The position numbers were made by a program, and so were the translations under genes. This document shows positions 46,725 to 63,855 of a DNA stretch of 64,000 nt, in pieces (the stretch's first letter is position 1; each line of letters starts with the position of its first letter). The notes beneath the pieces are model-generated. The model searched no databases. It was not told the DNA's origin and was given only the letters and a program-made list of their open reading frames with translations. Origin of the DNA: Candidatus Omnitrophota bacterium (GTDB lineage: Bacteria; Omnitrophota; Gorgyraeia; Duberdicusellales; 4484-171); the NCBI GenBank assembly GCA_021735655.1, contig JAIPGM010000009.1, positions 4,976 through 68,975 of the forward strand, given 5' to 3'.

Positions 46725-46753
46725 AATCTAAACCTAAAATAAGTACCTTATAC

Positions 46754-47200: not shown

Positions 47201-47210
47201 ACAAACAAAT

Positions 47211-47786
47211 CTAAGGAATCCTATTTTTTGCCTTCTTCAATAAAGTATATTCAACATAGCCGCATAAAACTTCCTGCACCTTAGCCGGGGGCGGGACAGC
47301 AAAGTAATGAGAAATGACTGCATGAGCCATCTCATGACCAAGCATGCCAAGAGTTAAGTCTTGATAGGAAATATAGATTGTATTTTTGGAATGAAGATAG
47401 AAAGAACGCTCCGGAAAACTAGAACCAAAATAACTGCTAAACACTGAGCTCAAAGATGACTGATCCGGAAGAATGCTTATCTTGCCGTGAAAGCTATAAA
47501 CATGGATATCGAGGATATCGGAAACTTCCAAATACAAATCATCCATCGCCTGTGCTATGAGAGAGTAAGAATCATTTTTCTGCTTGCCAAAAAAACTGTC
47601 AACATTTCCTAAATAGCTAAAATTTATTTTACTTAACAAAGAAACAACATCTAGCTTGCGAGACCCATAAACCGAAAAGTATTTTCCGGTAGCAAGAAGC
47701 GAAAGGCTACCCTCTTGAGCTAAAACCTTAGGAGTAAATAAAACCCCTAACATGACAATAGACAGTATTAAGCTCTTTTTCATCAA
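47211..47786 (-). CDS. Secreted protein with HExxH motif (putative metallopeptidase-like)
   Basis: Signal peptide MMKKSLILSIVMLGVLFTPKVLAQ. GHEMAHAV. Confidence 0.4.
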   Translation of the reverse strand: MMKKSLILSIVMLGVLFTPKVLAQEGSLSLLATGKYFSVYGSRKLDVVSLLSKINFSYLGNVDSFFGKQKNDSYSLIAQAMDDLYLEVSDILDIHVYSFHGKISILPDQSSLSSVFSSYFGSSFPERSFYLHSKNTIYISYQDLTLGMLGHEMAHAVISHYFAVPPPAKVQEVLCGYVEYTLLKKAKNRIP

Positions 47787-48352
47787 GTTTTAAAATTATC
47801 AAGTTCAACCTGCAAATGATCAAGAAGAGTTAAAAGTTGATCAGCATCTTTTGCTGCTATATGAAAATTCCTGTCTCTTATAAATTTGCTCAAGGAGTTA
47901 AAGCTAGCTTTTAGCCCTAAGTGCTTATCTTTCAATGACCTACACATAGCATCTAAAGATTTAGCAAACGCCTGCAACTGATCATTGCCGCGAATATGAA
48001 AATCTCTTCTAAAATCTGCACGCTGGAGTAAATCAACCTCACGGCGCAGGCGAAAAAGAGGTCCAGCAATTTGATGAGACACAAGCATTGTTAAAGCAAG
48101 AACCCCTAAGCCACTAAAAAATACTACTACCGTTAAATTAATAGCAACTATCGGCAAAATAAAATCCGAGGTTCTTTTAACGGTTACTTTTGTGTTTTCA
48201 ATGGCTACTGTGTTTGAATCACTAGAAAAAAATAATATTCCTCCTAGAATAAGCAACGATGATAAAACAATAATTGAACCGAATTTCATCATAAATCTTG
48301 TCTGAAAATTTTTATCAATAAAGTAATTCCTACGTTTAAATTTTTCTGCCAT
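47783..48352 (-). CDS. HAMP-domain membrane protein
   Basis: Two TM segments flank a short loop. HAMP-like HQIAGPLFRLRREVDLLQRADF. No output domain. Confidence 0.45.
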   Translation of the reverse strand: MAEKFKRRNYFIDKNFQTRFMMKFGSIIVLSSLLILGGILFFSSDSNTVAIENTKVTVKRTSDFILPIVAINLTVVVFFSGLGVLALTMLVSHQIAGPLFRLRREVDLLQRADFRRDFHIRGNDQLQAFAKSLDAMCRSLKDKHLGLKASFNSLSKFIRDRNFHIAAKDADQLLTLLDHLQVELDNFKT

Positions 48353-48365
48353 GACTTCCTCCCTT

Positions 48366-48914
48366 TTATTGGTTAGCTTTAAGGTCTAAACCTTCATAAT
48401 CAATATTAATCTTCACTTTTGTCTTTAAGGACTCTGCCCACTGGTTTATCGCCTCACGTTGTTTTTCATTCAAAATGACCCATTTTATCTGATCATATAC
48501 TTGAGCTAGCTCTTTCTCCGGAAATTGACTATCTTTATTTTTTTTGTAATATCTACGAATATCCTGGTCATTAACCTGAATACCAACAGCCAGTTCTTTT
48601 ATCTTTTTTGATAAAGCAAGTTTAAGTAATGACTGCTCCCAGAAAAGCTGAACGTCTTTTAGAAATTCCGGATCCTTATCCAAACCCAACCTCTCGGCTT
48701 CATTAAGAATTAGTTTGCGGGATATAAACTGATCTAGGAAATCTCGCTGCGATTCAACATCAGAGCTACGAGATAAGGAAGAGTTTAGAGCTTGTTTAAA
48801 CTCCTGCTTACTTACTTCAATATTACCAATCGTAATTACCGGGTGCTCTTTATCTGCTAAGCCGCAACCAACAACTAATAAAATCATTATAATAACAGGA
48901 ATTGCTCTGAACAT
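48366..48914 (-). CDS. SurA/PpiD-N-terminal-domain-like lipoprotein chaperone
   Basis: Start reassigned to MFRAIPVIIMILLVVGCG (lipobox VVGC); an AAGGAGG RBS lies 4 nt upstream. Helical SurA_N-like region follows. Confidence 0.45.
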   Translation of the reverse strand: MFRAIPVIIMILLVVGCGLADKEHPVITIGNIEVSKQEFKQALNSSLSRSSDVESQRDFLDQFISRKLILNEAERLGLDKDPEFLKDVQLFWEQSLLKLALSKKIKELAVGIQVNDQDIRRYYKKNKDSQFPEKELAQVYDQIKWVILNEKQREAINQWAESLKTKVKINIDYEGLDLKANQ

Positions 48915-48977
48915 AGAACCTCCTTTTTTTCCGCTAATCAATCTTTCTTTTATTATACTATTTTATCGGAAGAACTC

Positions 48978-49016
48978 AAAATAAAAAACAGGAAGGTGGA
49001 TGCCACCTTCCTGTTA
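48978..49016 (-). terminator. Rho-independent terminator downstream of tpsA
   Basis: Minus-strand RNA CAGGAAGGUGG-CAU-CCACCUUCCUG is a perfect 11-bp stem, followed by UUUUUUAUUUU. Confidence 0.7.
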
Positions 49017-49043
49017 ATTAAACTCTCTATTGTCAAAATCTAC

Positions 49044-52000
49044 TTACAAATCAGTTGCTTTTTTCTTCTTTTTCTCATCATCGTCTTTGCCGCCAAAATA
49101 AGGAGCTAGAGTCCCTTTGAGGTTAATATTCTGCTCAATGAACTCATAAGCACCACTATCTAGGCTAATACCATCAAAGCCTGACTCATCGGTTACAGTT
49201 AACGGATGATAAGCATAAAAATCGGTGCTTCTAACTGGGGTAACTGTACTAAATCTATAGTTAGCCATCAATTCATAGTAAGTCCTAGAATCACGCAAGA
49301 TACTTGCTAAAAATTGAGCACCGTCAAATTCTGGTAAGAAATCTGGCCAAATCTGCTGAGGTCCTAAGTTAGCTGCCGCAGGGCCAAACAAAGGTGAAGC
49401 ACCTCTGGTGTCGGTATCATCATAAAAGATGTATCCCGGAGGTGTAACATTGGTTAAGTCAATATCTGGCGATGGAAAAACCCCGGTAACTGCTGTAACC
49501 CCAGGTCTAACTATACCTTCAATGGCTCCGCTTACCCCTAAGGTACCACTAGGACCAGCTAAGGTAAAACCAGGAGCAGCGCCACCTATCTCTAGGGTAA
49601 GCCCAGCAACTGGCGTAAAACCAGCAGGAACTGCCCATTTTGAAGGATCTAAATCCACTGCCTGAATATTTACATTTAAAGGATTATAAAAATTATCTGC
49701 ATCTACTGGAACTCCTGCGTTACCAATTCCAATTGTGCCTTCTGGTGTTGAGAAATAAGAATAACTTCCAGCAATTACGTTTGGCCCAGAAACCGGGTCA
49801 ACTACGTAATGTGAAAATACATCTATTCCACCATCGGTCGACCAAGGAGTACCAGTTAAGTCCATCGGAAGCGCTCTTGCGAAATCATTTACCGTGTCAG
49901 GACCAGTTGTTACGTCTGGTTGTACTCCGCTAGGATCCCAGCCGGTTCCGGCATAAATCGAGCCAGTGCGGCTTTCTAAATAAACTCCACCGCGCGGTGC
50001 GATAACTGAGTTAACTGTCATGTCCCCACCACTACTAACATTAATTATCCCATTATTAGCAGCAACTGAAAGACCATAAAGAGTGCCTGCGTCCTCAGTC
50101 AAGGTACCTAGGGTAATGCTGTCTAATTCATTAACGTAGATGTTTCCTACATCCCAAGAGTAAGCACTTAAATAATCAACTGCTGTCATAAATGGCGAAG
50201 CACTGGTACCGATATTGTGACGGGCCAATAACCCGGCAAAATCAGCGCTAACCAGCGAAGTAGCATCACCATAGATATTACCTTCCCAAGCATAGATATC
50301 TACTTCTGAGCTGCCTGTACCGCCAACTGAAGCTGAAATAGAGCTATTAGCAAGGGTTACATCGCCGTTACCAGAGATTAAAGTTGCTCTGGCATCGCCG
50401 TCACCTATCATCTCAGCTGAAACAGTACTATCAGTAATATTTACACCCAAATTAGCAAATAATTCAACTAAAGCTGTATCACTACCACTTAAAGCTTGAG
50501 CTAAAATAGTGCTGCCATTAGTTACGTTAATTTCACCATCTTGGGCGGTTACGCCTATTTCGGCATGACCTTCTCCATCTACGTCAGCAGTAATATCACT
50601 ATTGCTAATATTAACATCGTTAAGGGTATTAATATCAACAAGGGCTATTCCTTCATTGCCTACTAAAGCTTCCAAGGTTGAATCGGTAATTGTTGTACTA
50701 TTCCCAGCAACGCTAAGAATAGTTGCATCACCATCATTGCCAACTGAAGCTATTACTGTACTTTCTATTACCTCTATGTTGCCTTTGTCGGCAGCCAAGT
50801 TAACCGTAGCATCGCCATCATTTACTACTGATGCAGCAAGTGTACTCGGATCAATGGTTATATCATTTGCGGCAAGAACGTTAATCGTAGCATCGCCATC
50901 ATTACCAACCAAAGCTTCCAAGGTTGAATCAGTAATTGTAGTATTGTCGCCAGCTTCTAAGTTAACTGTTGCGTCACCGTCATTACCAACCAAAGCATAT
51001 CCATAATCAGTGTAGGCTTCAACATGACCAGTATCGACCTCGATATCATCTTCAGCTTCGATATTGACAGTGGCTTTGATGTCGCTGTCTTGGATTTCGA
51101 CTCTTTCATCAGCTTCTAGATTGATCTCAGATTTAACCGTACTAGAAGAGATCTTGACATCATCAGCTGATACTATATCGACCTGAGCTTCAATTGTCTC
51201 ATCAGTTACTTCGATGTTTTCTCCAGCTTCAATGTCAATTGTTGATTTTACAGTGCTGTCTTGAATTATTAGGTCATTCCACCAGTTGCCTTCTTCAGGA
51301 TCCCAACCACCGACTACTAGGTCGATCTCGGATTTAACGGTGTCAACGTCATCGCCGTTGGTGATCTCAACGTCATCTTCAGCATCGATGTCAACTGTGG
51401 CTAATACATTACTGTTAACAATCTCCATCCTCTCATCAGCCTTAAGCTCGACTTCAGACTCGATATGGCTGTCGATTGACTTTACGTCATCTGAGGACTT
51501 AAGAGTTACTTCAGATTCGATGGTCTCACCAGTTACCTCTATAGTATCCTCAGCAGTTACATCGACTAAGGCCTTAACGGTTGATTCTTCAATTACCAGG
51601 TCGCTCCAGTTGCTGTCATTGTCACCACTCCAGCCGCCGGCTACCAGATCTATTTCAGCTTTGATAGTTTCACCTTCAGCGTTAGTGATTTCAACGTCAT
51701 CTTGAGCCTCAATCTCAATAGTAGCTAAGATATCGCTGCTTTCAATTTGCAGACGGTCTTGAGCTACTAGTTCAAGTTCGGCTTCTATAGTGCTATCAGT
51801 TATCTTTACATCGTCTGAAGACTTAAGAGTTACTTCAGATTCGATGGTCTCATCAGTTACTTCAATCTTGTCATCGGCAGTTACATCTACCAATGATTTA
51901 ACTGTTGAATCTTCAATTACCAGGTCGCTCCAGTTGCTGTCATTATCACCACTCCAGCCGCCGGCTACCAGGTCTATTTCAGCTTTAACAGTAGTCTCAC

Positions 52001-55000
52001 CTTCAGTGATCTCAACGTCATCTTCGGCGTCAATAGCTACAGTTGCTAGAATATCACTGTCAGTTATTTCTAAACGATCATCAGCTACTAGCTCGGTTTC
52101 AGCTTCGATAGTGCTTTCAGAGATCTTCACATCGTCGCCGGAAGCTATATTAACTGTTGATTCAACAGTCTCACCGGTTACTTCGATCTTGTCATCGGCA
52201 GTGATATCGACCAGTGATTTAACCAAACTGCTGTTGATTATTACATCATTCCACCAGTTACTTGCATTGTTTACCACGATATCAATCAATGAGCCGATAG
52301 TTTTACCGCCGTCATTGGTGATCTCAACGTCATCTTCAGCTTCGATATTGACAGTGGCTTTGATGTCGCTGTCTTGGATTTCGACTCTTTCATCAGCGCT
52401 AATCCTAACTTCGGCCTTAACATCACTAGAAGCAATCTTTACGTCCTCATCGGCACTCAAGTTTACTTCTGCAGTTAAGTCTTCACCGTCTAAGTCGATA
52501 TTAGAATCTTCCAATTCGACTTTAGCCAATACTGTACTGCGTGTTACCTCTATATTGTTGTCAGCTTGGGCATTAACCGTTGCTTGGCCTTTTCCTTCTA
52601 AAATCGCCTCGACTGTACTGTCCTCTATTTTAATGTCATGATCAGCTTGTAAGTTAACTCTTGATTCACCATCAAGATAGTTAATCGCTCTAACCAAACT
52701 GTCATTCTTTACTATTAAATCATTACCAGCAGTAATATTTACACTGGCTACGCCGGTGTCAGAAGGTGGATCGATTGCTCTAACAGTGCTGTTATCCACA
52801 GTCACATTGCCTAAATCGGAATGGATACCAATATAGGCGCCACCATCAGATGAAGGGGCAAGTTTAGAAAAAGCGCTTACTAAGCTATCCTTGATCACTA
52901 TATCATTATCGGCAAGTAAGTTAATCCAGGCTGATGCACCAAGGGCCCTGGCGATAACATCACTTCTTAATAAACCGATTCTATTAGCATCGAATCTAAT
53001 TCTTGATAGTCCACCAAGATTTAACTCATTAGTAACTACCCTTGAGTCAATCACCCTAATATCATCATTAGCATCGAAGAAAATCCTGGCTAAGTAATTA
53101 CCGAACGAATTAGCTCTAACTACGCTACCGTCTCTTAGACCGATGTTTTTACCAGCATGAAACTCAACATTTGCCGGACCATTATTAATTGAGGTAGCTG
53201 CAACTCGTGAGTTTGTTAAACCGATATTATCCCCAGCATCTATTGTAATAATTGCTGAGGCTACTCCATCAAGCACCTGGCTCAACAAATCGCTGTTGTT
53301 CAGAAATACATCACTAGCAGCATCAATATCTATCTCAGCATGGCCGGTGTTTGACACTATTGCTTTCACTTCACTGTCATCGATTGTAATATCGCCATTC
53401 TCGGTCGAAATATCTACATAAGCATTACCGTTCAAAACTGATGCTGTAATGTAGCTTGTGTCTATGGCAATGTTATCACCGGCAGATAGATCAACTGAAG
53501 CATCGCCGTCACCCTCAACGGTTGCACTTACAGTGCTGTCAGTGATGGTTAAATCTCCATTCTCAAGTGTACCCGATGTAGGAGGAACAGGTTCGTAAGG
53601 AGTGGTCCAATCACCAGCTACCATTTTAACCGTAGCATTACCGTTTCCGGTTACATTAGAAGAAACTGTACTATTAGCAACACTAATGTTCTCACCTTCA
53701 GCAAAAACCTCTGCATTACCAGTACCGGTTTGAGCTGAAACTGTACTTGAATCGTTTATATTAAGATCAGCGCCATGGAAAGTGCTGTTATACAAATCTG
53801 GATCAGGAAAATTTATCATAATCCCATCTGCATGCAATCCGGCGCTAAGTTCAACATTGGCATCGCCGGTTCCTTGAGTGATTGCGCTAACTGTGCTGTC
53901 AACAACATCGATCCCCTGCCAAGCACGGACAGTTGTTGTAGTATCACCATTGCCAGCTGTGAAAGCTCTGACTATGCTGTTGTTTTGTATTGCGGTATTG
54001 CCAGAAGTTCCAAAAAAGACTGTTGAATCTCCGTCATTACCAACAGTGGCTTCGATTGTACTGTTATCAACTGTTTGAGAGGCAATCGGCCCATGAGTAA
54101 GCAGTGAAACTTCAGCATCACCGTCATTGCCAATAGCCGCTGAAACAGTACTATCTAAAACTTGTAACGGCCCAGCCGATCTTAAAACAACACTAGCGGT
54201 GCCATTTAAAGCTGAGGCCGAAATCAAACTCGGGTCTATAGTCAGAGTTCCGTCGGCAATCATATTTCCAGCAGTTAAATCAACTGAAGCATTGCCAGTG
54301 CCTACGACAGTAGAAGTAATATCACTATCGGTTACAGTAACATTTGTACCAGCATCTACATCAATCGAAGCATCGCCATCAAGGCCAATTCTAGCTAAGA
54401 TATCGCTATCGACTATCGAAACTAGACCATTAGTTGCATTTGCAATAACTGTTGCATCTCCACCGCCGCGGACTCTTGAACGAATTAGGCTATTGTCCCT
54501 AATGGAGATTCCTCTTCCCGGTGTTGTTAAGCTAACTGAAGCATTTCCATTGCCATTAACCCAAGCATCAATGACGCTTGAGTCGTACACACTGATTCCA
54601 TTGTCAGCATCAGCAGTAATCAAAGCATTTCCATCGCCCGCACGAAAAGCCTCAATAGTTCCATCTACAAAAAGAGTTCCACTGTTAACGTCTAAATTAA
54701 TAACTGCATCATCAGCTGGACCAGATCCAGTTGCCAAAACTGAATAAGCATAAGTATCTCCACCGGTAATAATATCGACTACACTCCCTAGAGCCTGGAT
54801 ATCCCAAAGATTTACACCGTCTAACTCGTTAATCCATACATCGCCACCTAAAGCAATCGCTTGCCAGATATCATCTACGTTAGTGTCAATATGATCACCT
54901 GGGACACCAATAGTACCAGCTGCATTCATGTAAAGATTTGGAGCTGTTAAATTAATGCGATTACCATTAGTATCGAGAATATCGCCTGCAGAACTAGTTA

Positions 55001-58000
55001 AACGAATATTATCGCCAGCATTAATAACACCTAAAGAAATATTACCAACTGCATTAATATTAGCATCATGACCAGCCGTAACAGTGCTATTCGATACCAC
55101 AACCTGACCATCAGCGTCAATATTTACATCATAACCTGCGGTCATATCACTTGAACCATTCATGATAGTATCTCGACCGGTGACAACGTTAATACTTCCG
55201 TCAGAAAGTAACGCCGAGCTTTGGCTCATGATTAAATCCTGAGCTGCATAGATATCAACCAATCTGCCTGAGCGGATAGTTGAATTATTGTTCATAAGAA
55301 CATCTCTCTGGGCATCTACGTCAACCCAAGCTGTACCTAAAATATCTGCATTGTTAAACATCCTTAAGTCTGCATCAAGGTTTACATCAACAATTCTGGC
55401 TTCAATTGATGAGTTGTTATGCATACCTAAACCAAAAGCGTCAATGCGTGCATTAGTGGCATTAATTGCTGAAGTATTATACATTCTCATAAGATTAGCC
55501 ACATCAATCGTTACATTTGTACCTGAGATAGATGATCTATTATTCATTGTAAAATTATCTGGCCCTGCTCCATCACCTACGTTTACAAATATATCAGTTC
55601 CGGTAATCGAAGATGTGTTATTCATCTCCATATAATCATCGGCTGAAACATTCACCGTAGCACCATGGATAAGAGCATCGCCGTTCATAGTTAAAGTATC
55701 ATTGCCAGATCCATTGCCAGCTGAAACATTAACTATACCGCGTGTGCCAATAGTGCCTGTATTGTGGACTAGATCGTTATCGGCATGTACATTAACTGTA
55801 CCTGAGCCAAGGCTGATAACATCAGCGTTAACTGTCATATCAGCTCCGGGGCCAGAACCATTAGCTGCTAAACTAACATCACTATTTCCAACAACATCAG
55901 CATTAACTGTCATTGGCGAACCAGTAGTAATATCAATATTTCCACTACCAAAGTTCTTTACGGCATATCCCCATCCTGGCAAATCATTGAGGGCTATAGC
56001 ACCCTTATTGCGAATAGTGATATCACCGCTTGAATCAGGATCGCGTACCTGTGCGCTTAAACTGCCAATTCGAGTTTTCAAATCAATTGAAGTCTTTGCA
56101 TCAAGTATCGCTGTATCAGAAATGATGTTTGGCCCAAACCCACTATTACCTATAATAGAGCCGGTAAAGTTAAATGGATAAACATCGTAGCCCATTGTCA
56201 AAAGAATAACATCAGTTGCAATTAATTGGTTAATCGCTAAGTCAGTTAGCTCATTTAAATTAATAAGCCCGCCAACGCGACCCTCTAAAGTTTCTATCTC
56301 GGTCTCGATTCCATTACCTAAACCAGCGAGACCAACATTACCGTCAACATCAAAGGCAAGTGTGTCAGCTACAATATCAGTGCCGATGTCGCCTGAGCCC
56401 TGCTCCTGCACATCACCTGAACTGATTAGCTTAAATTTCAGCCCCGGCTGATCTAAATTATTAATTGTGATAGTTCCGGCGCTACTTGAACCGATATTGA
56501 TAAAACCAGAAGTAATCAAATTGTAGATTTCATCATTAGAAAGCCTAAACTGACCATAAGCTAAATGTGCGGCTAGAGCAATTGTCTGAGCAGCGCTTGG
56601 GGCAATAGTAATATCTGCCGTGCCGGCATCTACGATACCGTCAACATTAATGTCATCAGCGCTTATGTAGACTTCTCCGTCAGTTGCTCCAGTTGTATCT
56701 ATAACCGAACCATTTTGCAAATCATAGAAACCAGTAGTATCACCATCGCTATCAGCTGAACCGGTAAAGCTTCCACCACCGGTGTAAACATCTCCACCAG
56801 AACTATGGATAATATCACCTACGGCAGCCAAAATTACATCTCCGCCGCCACTATTGATCAAAGCATTAACATAAAGGTTAGGATCATCAACTACGGCTAT
56901 ATCAATAAGTCCGTTGTTAGTAGTAATCGCACCATCAAGCCATAAATCACCAGAGTTAATCAAACTGAAGCTATCTCCGTCAAATCCACCAAAATGCATT
57001 GCACCAGCATGATACATGGCGGCTCTTTGAGCAGTAATAGACATATTGTTTGATCTTAATTCAAGAGCACCATTTGTACCAAAACCGATATCACCACCGG
57101 CATTAAAATCTATGGTATTGGCTGATATATCAAAGTTAGTAATACCACCTGCAACCTTATCAATTCCATCAACAGCATTGCCACTATCATAAGCATCATT
57201 GATATTTCCACCGGCCGTAACTGTTACTGTTCCTAATGCAGGAATAGCTGAACCAGTAAAAGTACCATCAGTTGAAACCCTAGTAACATAAGCATCTTGG
57301 GCAGCAGTTAAGTCAATATCTCCGCCGTCAGTAACTACGCTGCCTGTTTGACTAATAGCCAAATCTCTTCCAGCATCAAGACCAACATTGCCAGCGCTTG
57401 AATCAACAGCAGCATTTACTGACAAATCTCCATCAGCACCAGCTGCAGCTAAACTAATATCGCCCAAGGCTAAAACATCAGAATTTACTGTTAAAGGAGA
57501 AGCTGTAGAAATATCAACTGCTCCACCGATATTATTAACACCACTACCGGCGATAGTTAGATCTCCAGTATTATCAATTTCTATATTTCCTGAAATCGTA
57601 TTAAGAGCTTCTAAATTACTTACCTGTGTTTCTAAAGCATCGCCGGAACCGATTCCTTGAGCTGCAGAAATGCTTAAAGAATCAGCGGTGATATCAGGAG
57701 TAGTGGCACTATTAGCATCTACTACTGCCCCATCACTTGAATTTATATTAACATTTACACCACTCAATCCAGTTGTAACTGTTGTTGAAGTGGCGCCTAA
57801 AGGATCGCTTCCTACCTCATAAGATGCTTTTAACCACGCATCACTTCTGGCAACATTTGAAACCCTGACTTCATCAATCTGGCCTTCAGTTAAATAATTT
57901 GTATCACCCCAACCGCCAATCATAAAGTCGGTAGCAGTATCGACATCGCCTGATGAAGTTGCAAAACCAATATTGTCACCTGCGCCATCTACATACAAAC

Positions 58001-60017
58001 TTCCTGAACCACCGCTACGAGCAAGCACAACATTATGCCAAGACCCATCAGCTATATTAACAGAACCATCGTCTGCATCGTTATTGATCCAGCTTCGAGC
58101 TTGACCATTATGATTTTCCAGGGTATAGCCAGAACCTGCTCCAGGAGTAGCACCAGCCAAACCAATATAATCCTCTGACTGATTTCCCTTATACCAGGTT
58201 TCAATGGTAAAATCGCCTGTTCCTAAACCAAGACCATTCCCAATATCAATAAAGCTACTTCCATCAAAATCAGCTGCATTACCCATTTCTCCATCAACGA
58301 GGGTTGTACCGTTATTTGTTCCATCGTTACCGTTAGCTGTTGAATCATTGTAGTCATTCATATGATGAACCATTAGATAACCATTGCTCCAAACATCGGT
58401 TGAATCGTTTTCCGGTGCGCCATAACTAGCGAAAGCAAAATTCTCGGAAGGTAAGTTTGTGTTATCGTCATGATACATTGAAAAAGTGGTAGTAAGGCTA
58501 TCACTTACGCTATCTAATTTAACCCAAATAAAAGCTTCCTGAGTTCCACTGTTCCAACTTTCAATTTCGTAAGAAAGCACTTTTCCGTCAGGCCCGACAA
58601 AACGCACGTCAGAACCATCGACTTGAGCTTGAGAAAAATCAAAATTACTGCTATCTAATTTTATTAAAACTGGGAAATCGGTAAGGGTGGAGTCAATGAG
58701 GCTTGGGTCAATAGTAAAATTCTCTTTATAACGCCAAGCCGGAGCAATCATCACATCATTGGTCGCCTCGATATTAATATCCTTAGCCGAAGATATTGCC
58801 CGAACAGTTACGTCGTAACCGCTAATATTAACGTCACCTGAAGTAATACTGGTTGTAATAATAAAACCGAAATCTTGGAAAAAGTCACCAGTACCATTAC
58901 CATCATTATCGGCCCTAAAAGTTAAACTTCCATCATTTCCAGTAATGTCGCCTTTAACGACTATGTGTTCATTATCAAGCCAGGTTTGATTACCGGTATA
59001 AGTACCGCCATATATATAGGTATGGCCATCGTTCATGTTATAAATACCTTCAGCGGCATTAATCGTGCCAGAAAAATCAGCGCCTTGAGAATCAACGGTT
59101 ACAGTGCCGCCTTCGGCGTTAATTACACCAGCTACTTTAACTCTTTGATTAGCCTCAAGCCTTACTATACCTTTTGTATTATTTAAAACGTTAGCTTCAA
59201 TTATTCCTTCATTATTAACCAACTGATCAAATAAACCATCTAAAGACTTAGCAGTAAGTAAAACTAATCCACCATCAGCGCTAATAGTTCCGGTATTTTT
59301 AACGGCACTTATACGATCGCTAAGGTTCTGACTTAAGGCTTGATTAACTACCGCTGAAACTATACCAGCAGCATCTAATTTTACGGTTATCTCTTCTCCG
59401 GCTGCTAATACTACGCTACCCAACTCAGCAGTGATCGTTCCGACATTTTCTACACCACCGCTACCGCCCAGGAGACCAACAAAACCACCGGGAGAGTTTA
59501 ACGTTCCTTGGTTAACCACACTTCCATTGCCAGCACCAGAAAAATTAAATGAATTGTCACCGTCTAGGAAATCACTATCGGTGATATCAAGAGTGGAAGC
59601 AATTAAACCAGCAGTGTCAACCTGTGAGTTAGCACCAAAAAGTATCCCATTGGTATTAATTACAAAAACTCTTCCATTGGCACTTAAGCGACCCATAAGA
59701 TGAGAACCGTATCCAGACATATCTCTATTCATTAGTATTGATTGAGACGTAGGCTGAGAGACATCAACTCTGGCGTTTGCACCGATACTAAAACCCAACC
59801 CACCATTTTCTCCATGCCAATTTATAATAGCTGAATCAGTGCTTTGCCCAATTCCCAGCTGAGCTGGCGCATAGTTTAAAGAAATCCCCCCGGAAACTAT
59901 CTCAGCCCCCTGAGGTAGTTGGTCCACCGGGACTTGGCTAAAACCATATTGTGGACTAAAGATAAAACTGACTAAAATAAGCAGAGACACAGCTTTAAAA
60001 AATTTACTTTTTCTCAT
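49044..60017 (-). CDS. Giant two-partner-secretion exoprotein (TpsA / filamentous-haemagglutinin-like adhesin), 3657 aa
   Basis: Sec signal MRKSKFFKAVSLLILVSFIFSPQYGFSQ. TPS domain with GRLSANGRVFVINTNGILFG (haemagglutination-activity-domain NPNGI-like motif) at about 59300..59930. DUF2341-like (FTIDPSLIDSTLTDFPVLIKL...DGSDVRFVGPDGKVLSYEIESW) plus LamG/ConA-like module at about 57860..58740. Thousands of residues of Asn/Asp/Thr/Ser-rich beta-helix repeats. C-terminal tandem repeat families (see repeat features). Confidence 0.75.
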   Translation of the reverse strand: MRKSKFFKAVSLLILVSFIFSPQYGFSQVPVDQLPQGAEIVSGGISLNYAPAQLGIGQSTDSAIINWHGENGGLGFSIGANARVDVSQPTSQSILMNRDMSGYGSHLMGRLSANGRVFVINTNGILFGANSQVDTAGLIASTLDITDSDFLDGDNSFNFSGAGNGSVVNQGTLNSPGGFVGLLGGSGGVENVGTITAELGSVVLAAGEEITVKLDAAGIVSAVVNQALSQNLSDRISAVKNTGTISADGGLVLLTAKSLDGLFDQLVNNEGIIEANVLNNTKGIVRLEANQRVKVAGVINAEGGTVTVDSQGADFSGTINAAEGIYNMNDGHTYIYGGTYTGNQTWLDNEHIVVKGDITGNDGSLTFRADNDGNGTGDFFQDFGFIITTSITSGDVNISGYDVTVRAISSAKDINIEATNDVMIAPAWRYKENFTIDPSLIDSTLTDFPVLIKLDSSNFDFSQAQVDGSDVRFVGPDGKVLSYEIESWNSGTQEAFIWVKLDSVSDSLTTTFSMYHDDNTNLPSENFAFASYGAPENDSTDVWSNGYLMVHHMNDYNDSTANGNDGTNNGTTLVDGEMGNAADFDGSSFIDIGNGLGLGTGDFTIETWYKGNQSEDYIGLAGATPGAGSGYTLENHNGQARSWINNDADDGSVNIADGSWHNVVLARSGGSGSLYVDGAGDNIGFATSSGDVDTATDFMIGGWGDTNYLTEGQIDEVRVSNVARSDAWLKASYEVGSDPLGATSTTVTTGLSGVNVNINSSDGAVVDANSATTPDITADSLSISAAQGIGSGDALETQVSNLEALNTISGNIEIDNTGDLTIAGSGVNNIGGAVDISTASPLTVNSDVLALGDISLAAAGADGDLSVNAAVDSSAGNVGLDAGRDLAISQTGSVVTDGGDIDLTAAQDAYVTRVSTDGTFTGSAIPALGTVTVTAGGNINDAYDSGNAVDGIDKVAGGITNFDISANTIDFNAGGDIGFGTNGALELRSNNMSITAQRAAMYHAGAMHFGGFDGDSFSLINSGDLWLDGAITTNNGLIDIAVVDDPNLYVNALINSGGGDVILAAVGDIIHSSGGDVYTGGGSFTGSADSDGDTTGFYDLQNGSVIDTTGATDGEVYISADDINVDGIVDAGTADITIAPSAAQTIALAAHLAYGQFRLSNDEIYNLITSGFINIGSSSAGTITINNLDQPGLKFKLISSGDVQEQGSGDIGTDIVADTLAFDVDGNVGLAGLGNGIETEIETLEGRVGGLINLNELTDLAINQLIATDVILLTMGYDVYPFNFTGSIIGNSGFGPNIISDTAILDAKTSIDLKTRIGSLSAQVRDPDSSGDITIRNKGAIALNDLPGWGYAVKNFGSGNIDITTGSPMTVNADVVGNSDVSLAANGSGPGADMTVNADVISLGSGTVNVHADNDLVHNTGTIGTRGIVNVSAGNGSGNDTLTMNGDALIHGATVNVSADDYMEMNNTSSITGTDIFVNVGDGAGPDNFTMNNRSSISGTNVTIDVANLMRMYNTSAINATNARIDAFGLGMHNNSSIEARIVDVNLDADLRMFNNADILGTAWVDVDAQRDVLMNNNSTIRSGRLVDIYAAQDLIMSQSSALLSDGSINVVTGRDTIMNGSSDMTAGYDVNIDADGQVVVSNSTVTAGHDANINAVGNISLGVINAGDNIRLTSSAGDILDTNGNRINLTAPNLYMNAAGTIGVPGDHIDTNVDDIWQAIALGGDVWINELDGVNLWDIQALGSVVDIITGGDTYAYSVLATGSGPADDAVINLDVNSGTLFVDGTIEAFRAGDGNALITADADNGISVYDSSVIDAWVNGNGNASVSLTTPGRGISIRDNSLIRSRVRGGGDATVIANATNGLVSIVDSDILARIGLDGDASIDVDAGTNVTVTDSDITSTVVGTGNASVDLTAGNMIADGTLTIDPSLISASALNGTASVVLRSAGPLQVLDSTVSAAIGNDGDAEVSLLTHGPIASQTVDNSTIEATVGNDGDSTVFFGTSGNTAIQNNSIVRAFTAGNGDTTTTVRAWQGIDVVDSTVSAITQGTGDANVELSAGLHADGIMINFPDPDLYNSTFHGADLNINDSSTVSAQTGTGNAEVFAEGENISVANSTVSSNVTGNGNATVKMVAGDWTTPYEPVPPTSGTLENGDLTITDSTVSATVEGDGDASVDLSAGDNIAIDTSYITASVLNGNAYVDISTENGDITIDDSEVKAIVSNTGHAEIDIDAASDVFLNNSDLLSQVLDGVASAIITIDAGDNIGLTNSRVAATSINNGPANVEFHAGKNIGLRDGSVVRANSFGNYLARIFFDANDDIRVIDSRVVTNELNLGGLSRIRFDANRIGLLRSDVIARALGASAWINLLADNDIVIKDSLVSAFSKLAPSSDGGAYIGIHSDLGNVTVDNSTVRAIDPPSDTGVASVNITAGNDLIVKNDSLVRAINYLDGESRVNLQADHDIKIEDSTVEAILEGKGQATVNAQADNNIEVTRSTVLAKVELEDSNIDLDGEDLTAEVNLSADEDVKIASSDVKAEVRISADERVEIQDSDIKATVNIEAEDDVEITNDGGKTIGSLIDIVVNNASNWWNDVIINSSLVKSLVDITADDKIEVTGETVESTVNIASGDDVKISESTIEAETELVADDRLEITDSDILATVAIDAEDDVEITEGETTVKAEIDLVAGGWSGDNDSNWSDLVIEDSTVKSLVDVTADDKIEVTDETIESEVTLKSSDDVKITDSTIEAELELVAQDRLQIESSDILATIEIEAQDDVEITNAEGETIKAEIDLVAGGWSGDNDSNWSDLVIEESTVKALVDVTAEDTIEVTGETIESEVTLKSSDDVKSIDSHIESEVELKADERMEIVNSNVLATVDIDAEDDVEITNGDDVDTVKSEIDLVVGGWDPEEGNWWNDLIIQDSTVKSTIDIEAGENIEVTDETIEAQVDIVSADDVKISSSTVKSEINLEADERVEIQDSDIKATVNIEAEDDIEVDTGHVEAYTDYGYALVGNDGDATVNLEAGDNTTITDSTLEALVGNDGDATINVLAANDITIDPSTLAASVVNDGDATVNLAADKGNIEVIESTVIASVGNDGDATILSVAGNSTTITDSTLEALVGNEGIALVDINTLNDVNISNSDITADVDGEGHAEIGVTAQDGEINVTNGSTILAQALSGSDTALVELFANLGVNITDSTVSAEMIGDGDARATLISGNGDVTLANSSISASVGGTGSSEVDIYAWEGNIYGDATSLVSADFAGLLARHNIGTSASPFMTAVDYLSAYSWDVGNIYVNELDSITLGTLTEDAGTLYGLSVAANNGIINVSSGGDMTVNSVIAPRGGVYLESRTGSIYAGTGWDPSGVQPDVTTGPDTVNDFARALPMDLTGTPWSTDGGIDVFSHYVVDPVSGPNVIAGSYSYFSTPEGTIGIGNAGVPVDADNFYNPLNVNIQAVDLDPSKWAVPAGFTPVAGLTLEIGGAAPGFTLAGPSGTLGVSGAIEGIVRPGVTAVTGVFPSPDIDLTNVTPPGYIFYDDTDTRGASPLFGPAAANLGPQQIWPDFLPEFDGAQFLASILRDSRTYYELMANYRFSTVTPVRSTDFYAYHPLTVTDESGFDGISLDSGAYEFIEQNINLKGTLAPYFGGKDDDEKKKKKATDL
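50560..51010. repeat. Tandem about-72-nt (24-aa) coding repeats inside tpsA
   Basis: Near-identical DNA blocks, for example GCTTCCAAGGTTGAATCAGTAATTGT at 50640-50700 and again at 50881-50940. Protein repeat DSTLEALVGNDGDATVNLxAG, five or more copies. Confidence 0.6.
51040..52400. repeat. Tandem about-324-nt (108-aa) coding repeats inside tpsA, four or more copies
   Basis: AATTACCAGGTCGCTCCAGTTGCTGTCATT recurs at 51591 and 51915. TTTGATGTCGCTGTCTTGGATTTCGACTCTTTCATCAGC recurs at 51080 and 52361. Protein repeat ...DSTVKSLVDVTADDKIEVTDETIESEVTLKSSDDVKITDSTIEAELELVAQDRLQIESSDILATIEIEAQDDVEITN.... Confidence 0.65.
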
Positions 60018-60270
60018 TTAAACCCTCCAGGTTTTTTATTTGATATTGTTTTGACTATTTGTTTCATTTACCCTGATTTATAAGATAAAAAAAGACAAAC
60101 TGTAAGCGGTTACAGTTGATATTAATATGTAACATATTTTTTCTGAAAATTCAAGGAAACAGACATTTTTTCTCGTATTCCCGCTACGCTAATTTGAAGG
60201 GTTGCTTAAAGGCAAGCCCCATGGTTTTTCCCGGAACCACTGTCTTTCCTAGTTCGCTTACACCAAGCTC

Positions 60271-62001
60271 CTAGAAAAGTACAGAAAGTTCAAACCACTC
60301 CTGATGGTCCTCATTGTCTGACGACTCTACCCCTAAAGGATAGCCTACTTCAACCCTGGCTGAAATATCATTGCTCAGGTTAAATCGAAAGCCAAAGCCA
60401 GCGCTTTTAAGGGTGCGGTGTTTCTTGTCGCCAGTGAGAACTTTATTAAGATGAACAGTTCCCCAGTCATAAAACAGAACTGTTCGGAGTGCGTCATGAA
60501 AAGTATCTTTTTTAGTGAATGGCACCTTCCAGCCCTTAGGCATTAAATAGCAAGGAAATGACCATTCAAAACTTGAATAAAGACCTCGGTCACCGGCATA
60601 TTCGGCAACCGGATAACCACGCACAGTAGCCGGACCACCAATTTGGAATTGCTCAGAAGCAACTAGATTGTAGTTTGAAAATTGAGCCTGGTTCTTAACT
60701 AAAAACGATGAACCAAAAGGCCCGGCTTGTAATCTAAATAAATTAAAGACGCCTTTATAGAATTTTCCGCCGCCACCAGTACGGCTTGCACTGGGGGTAT
60801 CGGTGCTGGAAACCTTAGCAGGCATACCGCCAAGGATATCAGGAACTCCGGCATCAAGTTCAGCAGTAAAGATGTTTCTTCCCCATTTATCACTCATATC
60901 TAGGTCAAAACCGGCCTTAAAGACCCTCAGCTCATCGCGGCTGTCAAGCGAACCTAAAAGGTAGTTCTCAATATTCTTATAGTCAAAGCCAAAATTAAGA
61001 CGTAAATCTAGATTAGGGTTAGAAATAACTTTTTTATTAAGAAATACCCCGTATATCTCAACCTCACCCCTTGAATCAACTACCTCGAATTCTTCACCTA
61101 ACTTTGTTTTGCTCCGAGCAAGATAAAATCCGGTTTCAATGGTGTTGCTAATCGGGATACTGTAGCGGGCTTGCTTTAATTTATAAAGATCGGTCTCAGA
61201 CATCTGTAACTTAAAAAATAACTTATCGTCAAAACCAAAAAGATTGTTGTGCTCGACTGTGAGCGAGTGACGATACTCACCAAGATAGCGAGATGAGTAG
61301 TTGTCATATTCGTATCCAAGGTGAAAAGGAAAGTTATCTTCTACTTCTAAAACAACATCAGTTGTCCCTGGTTCTGCTCCCGGAACTAAAACTACCTTGA
61401 CGGTTCGATCAGGATGTTCATTGATATAAGCTAAAGCATCCTGAAGCTCTGAATAATCAAAAACTTCTCCCGGTGTAACTTTGATCCGTTTCTCAAGTAA
61501 AGATGTTTTAAAATATTTATTTCCACGCATCTCCAATGATCCAAGTAATCCTTCGACTACCCGAATTATTAAAACTCCCTCACGCATCGTTTGTGGCGGG
61601 ATGTAAGCACGTGAAGTCGCGTAACCACGCTTGCGGTATTCATCGGTGATTAAGTCCGTGATCCTCTGCATTGTCTTTAAGGAAATTTTTTTACCTTCAT
61701 GAATTATGGTAATATCCCTAATTACTTCTTCGGGGACAAGCGTCGCACCTTCAACTTTTATAGCCTTGATTAAAACTTTTTCGCCTTCATCTTCAGCGGC
61801 AACATCCTCAGAAGTTAATTCTTCGGCTTTTTTTCGATCGTACTCAATTCTTTCCTGGAGTTCTTTAGAACCCTTTAATTGTTTTTGCTGTTGAGATATT
61901 CCACCGCCGGTTTGTGAAACTGGTGGAGTTTGAGAAAAGGTTGGTAAAGATATAAAAAAGGTAATAATTAAGGCGAGCGCAATTATTTTGCTTTTCAGCA
62001 T
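60271..62001 (-). CDS. ShlB/FhaC/HecB-family TpsB outer-membrane transporter
   Basis: Signal peptide, POTRA-like region (GNKYFKTSLLEKRIKVTPGEVF), a 576-aa C-terminal beta-barrel ending in F, and position directly upstream of tpsA. GAGGAGGG RBS. Confidence 0.7.
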   Translation of the reverse strand: MLKSKIIALALIITFFISLPTFSQTPPVSQTGGGISQQQKQLKGSKELQERIEYDRKKAEELTSEDVAAEDEGEKVLIKAIKVEGATLVPEEVIRDITIIHEGKKISLKTMQRITDLITDEYRKRGYATSRAYIPPQTMREGVLIIRVVEGLLGSLEMRGNKYFKTSLLEKRIKVTPGEVFDYSELQDALAYINEHPDRTVKVVLVPGAEPGTTDVVLEVEDNFPFHLGYEYDNYSSRYLGEYRHSLTVEHNNLFGFDDKLFFKLQMSETDLYKLKQARYSIPISNTIETGFYLARSKTKLGEEFEVVDSRGEVEIYGVFLNKKVISNPNLDLRLNFGFDYKNIENYLLGSLDSRDELRVFKAGFDLDMSDKWGRNIFTAELDAGVPDILGGMPAKVSSTDTPSASRTGGGGKFYKGVFNLFRLQAGPFGSSFLVKNQAQFSNYNLVASEQFQIGGPATVRGYPVAEYAGDRGLYSSFEWSFPCYLMPKGWKVPFTKKDTFHDALRTVLFYDWGTVHLNKVLTGDKKHRTLKSAGFGFRFNLSNDISARVEVGYPLGVESSDNEDHQEWFELSVLF

Positions 62002-62044
62002 AGAGACCCTCCTCGGCTAGTTATTGTTATATATATGATAAAGT

Positions 62045-62072
62045 ATCATATAACTCGCTAAATTTTTGTCAA
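62045..62072 (-). promoter_or_regulatory. Sigma70-like promoter of the tpsB-tpsA operon
   Basis: Minus strand: TTGACA (62072..62067), a 16-nt spacer, then TATGAT (62050..62045). About 36-nt leader to the tpsB ATG at 62001. Confidence 0.5.
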
Positions 62073-62128
62073 GAAATTATTTAAACTGGCAAAAATTGGT
62101 TAAAAAAGGGCTGATTTTTAGGTGAGAG

Positions 62129-62677
62129 CTATTCAGACCAGAAGTGGTTTTTCTTACCAACTTGAGAGTTAATCACAATGTGTTTATCCGGTGCTAATCT
62201 AAGCGGTTCATGAATTGCCCGGTCAAAAGTATAAAGCTCAACATGCTTTCCGTAGCGCTCTTTGATTTTAGCAATAACTTCGACAAAATCAGAGTCTCCG
62301 GAAATTAAAACTGCGGTGTCATACTGATCGGTCACAGCCTTATCAAACATATCCAAAGCAATTTTTACATCTAAACCTTTTTGGGCCCAACCGCCATGAA
62401 TCCGAACTAACCTTCCTAATTTAATTTCAAAATAAGGAATTGATAATTTTAACTCTTTAAAGTATTCTTGCTGCTCCTGGTAAGTCTTGGGATTTTCAAT
62501 CTTGTTAAACTCAGCAGAATAATAGTAACATCTTACTAATCGGCTTTTTCCGACTATCCATTTTATAATATTATTCCACTTTATATCTTTACGTCTTATT
62601 GATGCCCGGGTACCTTTTAAATCTTTCATCTTCTGTACCACATATTCAGCGTCAATAAATATCATTATTCGATTCAT
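62129..62677 (-). CDS. NYN-domain (LabA-like) protein
   Basis: [18 protein letters not shown] and ISGDSDF, the PIN-like NYN acidic residues. Confidence 0.65.
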
Positions 62678-62692
62678 CGCAATCTCCTTTAA

Positions 62693-63082
62693 TTAAGACT
62701 CAGCACCTTCGCTATCAATATTTTTTTCAACCCACTCAACATGGTCGATTGGTGAATTCTTTTTAATATGCACACGCAACTTAGCAGCTGCCTCTGGACT
62801 AATCTTAAGAAATTTTATGCCAGCGATAAAAGGAAATGTAAAATTCTCGGCCTTCTTCGACCAAACTACCTCTCCGATAGCTTTAATCGACTTGTCTACC
62901 TCGCCAAGATAAATTTCCATATCAAGCTTCATGCCAACTTGCAAGAACTGTAAAACCGGCAGGCGCATACCACTCTCGGACACATCATTAGAGTTTGAAG
63001 TCACCAAGCGAAAACTCTTTACCACCTGATAGCTTACCCTTAAAGATTCGCTGATTCTAACTAATTGACGTCTCTCTTTCAT
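62693..63082 (-). CDS. PilZ-domain protein (c-di-GMP binding)
   Basis: ERRQLVR (RxxxR) and DVSESGMRL (D/NxSxxG) motifs. Confidence 0.6.
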   Translation of the reverse strand: MKERRQLVRISESLRVSYQVVKSFRLVTSNSNDVSESGMRLPVLQFLQVGMKLDMEIYLGEVDKSIKAIGEVVWSKKAENFTFPFIAGIKFLKISPEAAAKLRVHIKKNSPIDHVEWVEKNIDSEGAES

Positions 63083-63129
63083 AGGTTTTAATCTACCATA
63101 AAAAAATACCTACAGCAACTAGTATCCAA

Positions 63130-63855
63130 TTACCGACTTCTCAACTTGGCTAAGAGGCGCAAGATTTCAAGATAAAGCCAAATCAAAGTTACCATTAAGC
63201 CAAAGGCTCCGTACCACTCCATATATTTAGGGGCTCCGCTTTCTGCGCCTTTCTCAATAAAATCAAAATCAAGCACAAGGTTTAAAGAAGCAATGACTAC
63301 TACAAAAAGACTAAAACCAATACCCAGTGGACCGCTCTCATGAATAAAAGGTATACGAACTCCAAAAAAGCCCATAACCATACTGACAATATAAAGTAAA
63401 GCAATGCCTCCAGTTGCTGCCACCACTCCTAGCCTAAAATTATCGGTAACCTTAATCAATTTAGATTTATAGGCTAAAAGTAAGCAAAAAAGAACACCAA
63501 AAGTTAAGCCGATGGCTTGAGTTACAATCCCTTGATAAGTCTGTTCAAAAAACGAAGAAATTGCCCCCAAGAATACCCCTTCAACAAGAGCATAAAGCGG
63601 TGCGGTAATCGGCGACCACTCATTTTTAAAAACTGTAACTATCCCTATAATAAGTCCAACGATTGCTGCCGGAATCATAAACCGAGCAGCCTGAAGCGAA
63701 TTGCCCCAGCTCCAAGAAGCAGTAAGTAAAGTAAATAAAAGCAAAACCAAGGTCTTGTTAGTTGTACCCTGAATAGTCATACTTTCTGAAGAACCATAAG
63801 CATAACTCTTAGTAAATGCCTTGCCCCGCAAAGCCGGATTACCTGAACGCATCAT
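63130..63855 (-). CDS. Bax-inhibitor-1/YccA-like membrane protein (BaxI_1 family)
   Basis: MRSGNPALRG N-terminus and about 7 TM helices, typical of PF12811. Confidence 0.6.
   Translation of the reverse strand: MMRSGNPALRGKAFTKSYAYGSSESMTIQGTTNKTLVLLLFTLLTASWSWGNSLQAARFMIPAAIVGLIIGIVTVFKNEWSPITAPLYALVEGVFLGAISSFFEQTYQGIVTQAIGLTFGVLFCLLLAYKSKLIKVTDNFRLGVVAATGGIALLYIVSMVMGFFGVRIPFIHESGPLGIGFSLFVVVIASLNLVLDFDFIEKGAESGAPKYMEWYGAFGLMVTLIWLYLEILRLLAKLRSR

Follow-up and report, generated by a model that had tools for sequence, protein, structure and literature searches.

By what means the Candidatus Omnitrophota, uncultured and mostly ultra-small bacteria thought to be attached to or to prey on other cells, attach themselves is an open question (PMC10066038). 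A locus that bears on this question, with a giant exoprotein gene and the gene of its putative transporter, is present in a stretch of 64,000 nucleotides of contig JAIPGM010000009.1 (Candidatus Omnitrophota bacterium, assembly GCA_021735655.1). This stretch is called the window below, positions are those of the window, and its G+C content is about 39%. An earlier note on this DNA had described the locus as a two-partner secretion (TPS) operon, and both of its open reading frames (ORFs) were found on the minus strand at the coordinates given there:

60271..62001, minus strand: tpsB, outer-membrane transporter of the Omp85 family, 576 amino acids (aa), assigned by POTRA_2 and ShlB domains, motifs and structure matches to CdiB and FhaC
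49044..60017, minus strand: tpsA, exoprotein of 3657 aa with a TPS domain, a DUF2341-LamG module, repeats and a conserved tail
58944..59921, minus strand: TPS secretion domain of TpsA, residues ~33-358, assigned by PF05860, TIGR01901 and solved TPS structures

A frame of 3657 codons in DNA of this G+C content is not a chance product. Judged by domain and structure-match evidence, the locus is a genuine type Vb (two-partner) secretion system of an Omnitrophota bacterium, and the earlier description of a TpsB and TpsA pair was supported by hidden Markov model matches, by matches to solved TPS proteins and by a confident structure model. Gene tpsB lies upstream of tpsA on the same strand, as had been said, but not directly, the two genes being separated by a spacer of 253 nt. 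The conserved unit comprises five genes (47211..62072), namely tpsB, tpsA and an accessory trio; this follows from the synteny of the trio at loci with a conserved TpsA tail and from a reverse test that started from homologues of a HExxH protein of the trio.

Two-partner secretion genes

Known TpsB proteins contain two periplasmic POTRA domains and a ShlB-type 16-strand barrel, and proteins of the Omp85 family carry the motifs VRGY in loop 6 and (F/G)xDxG in the barrel. The product of tpsB matches both kinds of domain: a ShlB domain (PF03865) at residues 212-539, with 89.7 bits at a cut-off of 22.7, and one clear POTRA_2 domain at residues 78-151, with 69.4 bits, while PF07244 matched as two stretches. 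The motifs VRGY at residue 460 and FYDWG at residue 510 were read from the sequence. Solved CdiB (6wim, 1.8e-19) is matched nearly end to end over residues 34-488, with the POTRA region covered, and solved FhaC (4qky, 1e-7) over residues 122-486. By these matches TpsB is an Omp85-type outer-membrane transporter.

Residues ~1-430 of TpsA comprise the leader, the TPS domain and a short helical extension. The N-terminal hydrophobic leader, MRKSKFFKAVSLLILVSFIFSPQYGFSQ, is of the Sec type as judged by eye. A TPS-domain match within the first 300 residues, which the earlier note had predicted, was obtained when residues 1-427 were scanned alone (PF05860, residues 76-300, 68.4 bits, cut-off 33.5); a scan of the full-length protein of 3657 aa reported DUF2341 and Laminin_G_3 only, and not PF05860. 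Model TIGR01901 of NCBIfam gave 47.7 bits. Among solved structures, the TPS domain matches EtpA (8cpk, 5.9e-30), HxuA (4i84, 7e-22) and HMW1 (2odl, 1e-13). The segment NPNGILFG, present in all three aligned relatives, is NTNGILFG at residues 121-128 of the TpsA of the window (NTNG at 121-124), with threonine in place of proline. TpsA contains no cysteine in 3657 residues and is acidic (D+E 14.9%, K+R 3.9%). By domain assignment TpsA is a TPS exoprotein, and its export via TpsB is predicted. On all sequence criteria tested the locus falls within the TpsB and TpsA families, with two reservations, the replacement of proline by threonine in NPNG and the second POTRA domain.

Public data contain a representative protein of 3657 aa (P0199) that is 96% identical to the TpsA of the window, and the window contig is also present in the SRR12088349 assembly. 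By source name, the nearest homologues both of TpsA and of the HExxH protein belong to Candidatus Omnitrophota or Omnitrophica. In public annotation the TpsA proteins are named generically only, and the three accessory proteins are designated ‘hypothetical protein’.

Conserved C-terminal tail

The C-terminal part of TpsA, after the repetitive region, contains a conserved motif:

49047..49727, minus strand: C-terminal tail, residues 3431-3657 (~230), rich in proline, predicted to be unstructured (predicted local distance difference test, pLDDT, 30-60)
49092..49286, minus strand: C-terminal motif, residues 3578-3642, RTYYELM..YRF..V.P....FYAYHPLTVTD.SGFDGISLDSGAYEFIEQNINLKGTLAPYFG (alignment A6)

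Proline accounts for 10% of residues 3401-3600, and the tail is aromatic and acidic. Over its last ~430 residues TpsA is 26-52% identical to the extreme C-terminal ends of numerous other TPS proteins, which were found via their N terminus. Conservation peaks in the final ~65-75 residues, with the consensus RAYYEIL..R..SFEP.TP..FYAYHPLT.TD.SAFD.I.LD.GAYEFI..NI.LKK.LAPYFG, and the motif of the window is 34-58% identical to those of 22 family members (alignment A6). The profile of the tail matched nothing in the PDB or in Pfam. Among the 158 TPS proteins fetched, 38 carry the motif at the very C-terminal end. When metagenomes were scanned for it, 63 loci were found; a TPS domain is present in all motif-bearing ORFs complete at the 5' end (17 of 17), and 18 loci contain a tpsB much like that of the window (E 1e-130 to 1e-204), located upstream wherever tpsA is complete. 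Complete motif-bearing members have lengths of 745-1738 aa, and members that are cut or partly seen reach at least 3421 aa (L090) and 4067 aa (L146). These matches define a tail-bearing family of predicted TpsA proteins in Omnitrophota that is conserved phylum-wide and to which the protein of the window belongs.

In one locus (L086, 5108-14569), two tail-bearing tpsA genes, of 1710 and 1314 aa, are located in tandem behind a single tpsB, so that one transporter may serve several filaments.

Accessory genes downstream of tpsA

Three further genes are located downstream of tpsA on the same strand, with 13 nt between the first and the second and an overlap of 4 nt between the start of the third and the stop of the second:

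48366..48914, minus strand: accessory gene 1, 182 aa, lipoprotein (lipobox VVGC) with a SurA/PEB4-like chaperone domain and without the parvulin (peptidyl-prolyl isomerase) domain, assigned by family profile
47783..48352, minus strand: accessory gene 2, 189 aa, inner-membrane protein with two transmembrane segments, a HAMP-like segment and a coiled coil, assigned by alignment A8 and profile
47211..47786, minus strand: accessory gene 3, 191 aa, protein with a signal peptide and invariant HExxH...E (H151, E152, H155, E172), assigned by alignment A7

The ATG of accessory gene 1 is preceded by AAAGGAGG. Its product matches SurA_N_3 with 26.4-27.0 bits, just below the cut-off of 27.2, and the family profile matches the chaperone part of HP0175 (5ez1, 3e-9) and of PEB4/Cbf2 (3rfw, 4e-8). 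Homologues of this gene are present in about 50 of the 63 related loci.

The product of accessory gene 2 contains a near-invariant periplasmic loop of ~20 residues between the transmembrane segments, NSTTVAIENTKV.VK.T.DF. The family profile weakly matches the second transmembrane segment and HAMP domain of Tsr and HtrII (5e-3), and orthologues have precomputed Pfam HAMP matches; a Pfam scan of the copy of the window gave no HAMP match.

The product of accessory gene 3 is a putative small zinc metallopeptidase. Its 362 homologues are unnamed and without a Pfam domain, and most of those with a source name come from metagenome-assembled genomes (MAGs) of Candidatus Omnitrophota. A weak match to Peptidase_M48 was found in 2 of 19 family members, and the family profile gave no match in the PDB.

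Of the tail-bearing metagenome loci, 39 have 2.1 kb or more of sequence downstream, and 34 of them contain homologues of all three genes. The trio has the same order and strand in 26 of the 34 and starts there about 40-520 nt after tpsA, and in the remaining 8 it is located further downstream, upstream or on the opposite strand, still within the locus. The outer flanks of the locus in the window (genes for a PEGA protein, a membrane protein of 538 aa, an NYN protein, a PilZ protein and BaxI) have no homologues in the related loci. In the reverse test, which started from homologues of the HExxH protein on long contigs, the arrangement ShlB-TPS-lipoprotein-HAMP-HExxH was found in 4 of 7 loci; one further locus carries the trio after a tail-bearing gene of 4067 aa cut at the edge of the locus, and the remaining two are truncated by the end of the contig.

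In the window (37695-39419) as in L145 (4075-5769; Omnitrophota MAG GCA_043812495.1), a gene for glutaminyl-tRNA synthetase (GlnRS) follows the trio at a distance of a few kb downstream, which hints at wider synteny and helps to place the window taxonomically.

The nature of these neighbours bears on the main rival interpretation of the tail, in which it would act as cargo or in translocation and, after receptor binding, be delivered to a target cell, either into it or onto its surface, with the trio serving for loading or self-protection. Delivered domains are located at the extreme C terminus in CdiA, as the CdiA-CT toxins, and in FhaB, as its microtubule-binding domain (bioRxiv 10.1101/2025.06.17.660209), attachment to other cells and their exploitation have been inferred for Omnitrophota (PMC10066038), and an aromatic and acidic tail without a known fold would suit such a role. 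However, the tail is conserved, at the identities given above for alignment A6, and not polymorphic, its ~65-75 conserved residues are short for an effector, and no Pfam family beyond DUF2341 and LamG, hence no PT-VENN or pretoxin family, was found in the protein. The genes downstream are, moreover, a conserved set of chaperone, HAMP and HExxH proteins with export signals and not variable immunity genes. Conservation of the tail and the neighbour genes argue against a polymorphic toxin and are still compatible with delivery, which on the whole is considered unlikely.

Transcription signals

Signals resembling promoters and terminators were found at four places in the unit:

62045..62072, minus strand: sigma-70-like promoter upstream of tpsB, TTGACA-16-TATGAT, 11 of 12 consensus positions, the best match in 46500..64000; consensus match only
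60084..60117, minus strand: A/U-rich hairpin of 8 bp in the tpsB-tpsA spacer, AACUGUAA-CCGC-UUACAGUU, followed by UGUCUUUUUUUA (U run), read directly; the stem is present in the minimum free energy and centroid folds
48987..49015, minus strand: intrinsic terminator after tpsA, 13-bp stem with 7 G-C pairs, 3-nt loop and T run
48952..48979, minus strand: promoter-like site before the accessory trio, TTGAGT-16-TATAAT, 10 of 12; consensus match only

The strong promoter of the earlier note is thus present as a match to the consensus. It is located within the gap of 127 nt after the NYN gene, and a ribosome-binding site, GAGGAGGG, precedes the ATG of tpsB; the number of promoter-like sites in the region is no greater than in shuffled sequences. 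The terminator named in that note is likewise present by consensus match, the stem and T run being read at 49015..48987. The functional unit, as drawn up to that point, proved too small: the tpsB and tpsA pair is real, but the three conserved accessory genes at 47211..48914 lie beyond the terminator. In the window the five genes are probably transcribed as two units.

The spacer between tpsB and tpsA has a length of 253 nt in the window versus 8 nt in L003 and 57 nt in L004. Its overall fold is no better than that of shuffled sequences (z = -0.69), and the hairpin at 60084..60117 was absent from the results of the terminator scan. Speculatively, this hairpin could act as a partial terminator or attenuator of read-through into the 11-kb tpsA.

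A gene with a PilZ domain is present upstream of tpsB in the window (62693-63082, minus strand, with the NYN gene between) and in the unrelated locus L151 (666-1010); phmmer against L082-L144 found no PilZ homologue. Its position near tpsB may be a coincidence or may hint at control by cyclic di-GMP.

The strong terminator and the new promoter-like site between tpsA and the trio are what would be expected if the trio consisted of unrelated envelope housekeeping genes kept in place by inherited order, the system being limited to tpsB and tpsA. The lack of the trio nearby in 5 of the 39 loci agrees with this, and shared ancestry inflates the synteny counts, since the related loci all belong to one phylum. 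Yet the adjacency is kept down to 40-50% protein identity while the outer genes vary from locus to locus, and at L118, L126, L129 and L135 the trio, though shifted to the opposite side or strand, is still part of the locus. The HExxH family (362 homologues) stands beside a TPS pair in all informative cases examined, and none of the three proteins resembles a universal housekeeping gene. A neighbourhood kept only by inherited order is considered very unlikely.

DUF2341-LamG module

The earlier note had placed a DUF2341 domain and a LamG domain directly after the TPS domain, and Pfam found both there, above the cut-offs:

57834..58619, minus strand: DUF2341 beta-sandwich (residues 467-523) and concanavalin A (ConA)-like LamG jelly roll (residues 585-728), one rigid unit in the model, assigned by Pfam, AlphaFold2 (AF2) and Foldseek

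DUF2341 (PF10102) gave 40.6 bits (cut-off 23.4) and Laminin_G_3 (PF13385) gave 50.3 bits (cut-off 27.6). In the AF2 model of residues 407-760, which was built with 54 homologues (pLDDT 85.6, predicted TM score 0.86), the DUF2341 beta-sandwich packs on the jelly roll across residues 430-745. The top match of the module in Foldseek is domain 4 of the arabinanase AbnA of glycoside hydrolase family 43 (GH43) (5hon, TM 0.75); other top matches are the lectin domain of trypanosomal trans-sialidase, the Hc-N domain of clostridial neurotoxin, laminin LG and the lectin module of the type IV minor pilin PilC. The Foldseek probability is 1.00 against LamG/ConA-like lectin domains. As modelled, the best structural matches of the module are non-catalytic binding modules for carbohydrate or receptor, and the module most likely binds host or prey glycans or a surface receptor.

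The module is common. In a search by DUF2341 motifs with one genome per species, 78 loci were found, belonging to Patescibacteria, DPANN archaea, PVC phyla, Fibrobacterota, Bdellovibrionota and others, and among 1.84 billion representative proteins it is present in 1 to 21 copies per protein, in proteins of up to 7867 aa. Since protein homologue listings reached ~1.75 times the query length (1397 aa for a query of 800 aa, 544 aa for one of 312 aa), giant relatives were surveyed by the search of representative proteins and by contig scans instead. The module of the window is 26-37% identical to those of giant surface proteins over the full ~310 residues. In large proteins of Patescibacteria, where the DUF2341 module occurs, a role in host adhesion has been proposed (PMC11809585).

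Fusion of the module to a TPS domain is rare. Of the 78 genome loci one shows it (L004, a TpsA of 961 aa with tpsB upstream), and so do about five clusters among the 1.84 billion representatives. The tail is present in 38 and the module in 6 of the 158 fetched TPS proteins, and both together only in the cluster of the window protein itself. The TPS domain of the window is 52-57% identical to those of tail-bearing members versus 44-49% to those of module-bearing ones; the closer relation to tail-bearing members suggests that a TpsA of the tail family acquired the module. The comparison suggests that the TpsA of the window is a chimera, a tail-family TpsA that gained the DUF2341-LamG module.

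Repetitive passenger

Most of TpsA is represented by repeats:

49728..57830, minus strand: repetitive passenger, residues 730-3430 (~2700), found by self-BLAST and autocorrelation
50973..52592, minus strand: acidic super-repeats, residues ~2476-3015, five copies of ~108 aa, each with 19-aa coils and a GGWSGDNDSNW loop

Periods of 19, 27 and 108 residues were found in the passenger, as well as a duplicated block (795-898 / 1313-1427) and coils of ~27 aa with ‘GNDGDA’ at 1750-2300 and 2950-3250. The acidic tandem repeats that the earlier note had reported are present as 4-5 copies of ~108 aa at ~2476-3015, 52-76% identical to each other, with a D+E content of 29-30% and a hydrophobic autocorrelation of 0.43 at lag 19. 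Tandem Repeats Finder detected no DNA-level tandem repeats in tpsA, because the repeats, seen in the protein only, are too diverged at the DNA level. Pfam scans of residues 730-3657 in four pieces at E <= 1 gave nothing credible. In the AF2 model of the C-terminal 427 residues, residues 3231-3430 form stacked beta strands (pLDDT ~85-95), and the relative P0001 has Beta_helix/NosD matches at the equivalent place, after LamG. The passenger is probably a beta-helix, as had been supposed; this is well supported at the ends, with a modelled strand stack at 3231-3430, and is drawn for the middle from periodicity and analogy.

The module and the passenger together invite a reading of TpsA as mainly a secreted polysaccharide-degrading enzyme, in which a beta-helix of the pectate-lyase or NosD type would act on host or prey envelopes or on environmental polymers and the module would be its carbohydrate-binding unit. 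It agrees with the structural matches of LamG, the best being the substrate-binding domain 4 of a GH43 arabinanase and the next the trans-sialidase lectin domain, with the Beta_helix/NosD matches of P0001 and with the proposal that giant Omnitrophota proteins degrade surface polysaccharide of target cells (PMC10066038; bioRxiv 10.1101/2023.11.21.568195). Against it, no glycoside hydrolase, lyase, Beta_helix or NosD family was found in the protein of the window even at E <= 1, the 19-aa coils appear similar to the structural R1 repeats of FHA, and the protein P0002, consisting of TPS, DUF2341 and LamG alone, has no space for a catalytic helix. Because no catalytic family was detected, an enzymatic beta-helix was down-weighted and is held to be very unlikely.

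Comparison with known systems

Bordetella FhaB/FhaC shares with the window a tpsB/tpsA pair, a Sec leader, a TPS domain, a long beta-helical passenger with 19-residue coils, and a conserved C-terminal region that contains a proline-rich stretch and ends in a conserved extreme C terminus. The C-terminal region of FhaB, or prodomain, is periplasmic and removed by proteolysis, degradation being controlled by its extreme C terminus (PMC4542190). The maturation of FhaB involves chaperones and proteases of the periplasm, and the same is proposed for the window locus. In contrast to FhaB, the TpsA of the window has no Fil_haemagg repeat families in Pfam and carries a DUF2341-LamG module; its tail, compared by length and outline, comprises ~230 residues (65-75 conserved) versus ~1200 residues of the FhaB prodomain; the putative helpers are encoded beside tpsA, whereas those of FhaB (DegP, CtpA and SphB1) are unlinked; and tpsB is the first gene of the window locus. 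FhaB proper was rejected on the absence of Fil_haemagg repeat families in residues 730-3657 and the tail of ~230 residues.

CdiB is the closest solved match of TpsB, as given above. In CdiA, a long filament bears a receptor-binding region, and the C-terminal part is kept back in the periplasm until needed. Unlike in CdiA, the C terminus of the TpsA of the window is conserved and not polymorphic, and no immunity-like gene follows tpsA. A contact-dependent inhibition (CDI) toxin was rejected on these two grounds and on the absence of FHA-1/FHA-2, VENN or pretoxin Pfam families (whole protein at E <= 0.01, segments at E <= 1; the literal VENN string was not searched).

TPS adhesin loci with extra conserved genes are also represented by EtpBAC of enterotoxigenic E. 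coli and HMW1ABC of Haemophilus influenzae, and among solved structures the TPS domain matches EtpA best and HMW1 as well. The accessory gene of EtpBAC and HMW1ABC encodes a cytoplasmic glycosyltransferase, whereas the accessory products at the window locus are envelope proteins, and neither system is known to have a comparable tail or LamG module.

Giant surface proteins with DUF2341-LamG and MshQ-like pilus proteins contain the same module but are not TPS substrates. The same N-terminal architecture is found in the short TPS-DUF2341-LamG exoproteins P0001, P0002, P0003 and L004 (789-1343 aa), which are 40-44% identical to the TpsA of the window over ~720-750 residues and have tpsB directly upstream in L003 and L004. 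They end soon after LamG, as in P0002 with its 795 aa, essentially TPS, DUF2341 and LamG, or run into a NosD-type helix, and lack the conserved tail. The gene after P0002 (L003, 3068-5224) encodes an RtcB RNA ligase with an intein (Intein_splicing, 69 bits).

Proposed mechanism

The favoured reading, considered probable, is that TpsA is a surface filament exported by type Vb secretion, with a lectin-like module and a tail handled in the periplasm by the trio. The steps of Sec export, POTRA docking and N-to-C threading were taken from established knowledge of type Vb systems. TpsA would pass the inner membrane by Sec and stay unfolded in the periplasm, in keeping with the lack of cysteines, and its TPS domain would dock on the POTRA domains of TpsB. 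The chain would thread through the barrel with the N terminus first and fold outside into an acidic beta-helical filament of 19- and 27-residue coils, with the DUF2341-LamG module near the filament base binding to host or prey cells via a glycan or receptor. The proline-rich tail, emerging last, would be retained in the periplasm and serve as a handle, in the manner of the FhaB prodomain with its extreme C terminus. There the SurA-like lipoprotein would hold it, the HExxH protein would cleave it, leading to release or maturation of the filament, and the HAMP-like inner-membrane protein would couple or regulate this handling. We infer, as the earlier note did, that TpsA may serve as a key surface adhesin.

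Several points weigh against this reading. Expression, secretion and binding of TpsA are all predictions from sequence and models. The assignment as ‘beta-helix’ of residues 730-3230 relies on periodicity and analogy, ConA-like folds are also found in enzymes, and the low AF2 confidence of the tail may reflect a shallow alignment rather than disorder. Among the trio, the HAMP call on the copy of the window comes from a weak profile match and the protease call on accessory gene 3 from its motif. The trio is not nearby in 5 of the 39 loci with enough downstream sequence, and a strong terminator and a separate promoter-like site lie between tpsA and the trio in the window, so that co-regulation of the two is hypothetical.

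A further step, put forward tentatively, would be to regard the Omnitrophota loci as a distinct TPS subtype. In this subtype a handle of ~70 residues and a dedicated trio that holds, senses and cleaves it would provide regulated arrest and release of filaments of ~750 to more than 4000 residues for attachment to host or prey, and the scaffold of the window would have captured the module.

The principle of secretion is classical; new are the conserved tail, the trio of chaperone, HAMP and HExxH proteins and the lectin-module chimera, and the five-gene version is previously undescribed. No paper linking Omnitrophota with two-partner secretion was found in the searchable literature, and the main papers on giant Omnitrophota proteins do not mention haemagglutinin-type proteins or TPS. 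A TPS adhesin in itself would not surprise a specialist. The syntenic five-gene module, being phylum-wide, represents a concrete candidate attachment apparatus open to test and informs both the attachment of uncultured bacteria and the management of long TpsA proteins. It also defines two new protein families, that of the C-terminal motif and that of the HExxH protein, and offers a natural experiment on the chaperoning and release of very long TpsA proteins, for which Bordetella uses unlinked general proteases, while here the factors are apparently encoded in the locus.

Other genes of the window

All scanned ORFs of at least 120 aa (Pfam) are located on the minus strand across 1-64000; a few short plus-strand ORFs overlap longer minus-strand ORFs and probably do not represent genes. 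All 2-kb bins show a negative GC skew. Scans of the whole 64-kb window for tRNA and Rfam families gave no matches. Housekeeping genes are represented, for example, by those for GlnRS and MetH.

The gene at 37163-37723 (minus strand), overlapping the end of the GlnRS gene, encodes a type IV pilin or pseudopilin of 186 aa whose N terminus bears a prepilin methylation motif; Omnitrophota have been proposed to use type IV pili as attachment organelles. The product of the gene at 1312-2301 (minus strand) matches DUF2099 (264 bits), a family described as ‘conserved in archaea’ and found here in a bacterium. The gene at 21937-24132 (minus strand) encodes a fusion protein of 731 aa, in which Radical_SAM and LAM_C domains of the lysine-2,3-aminomutase type are joined to a C-terminal ATP-grasp domain of the D-Ala-D-Ala-ligase type, an unusual combination that suggests synthesis and ligation of a beta-amino acid.

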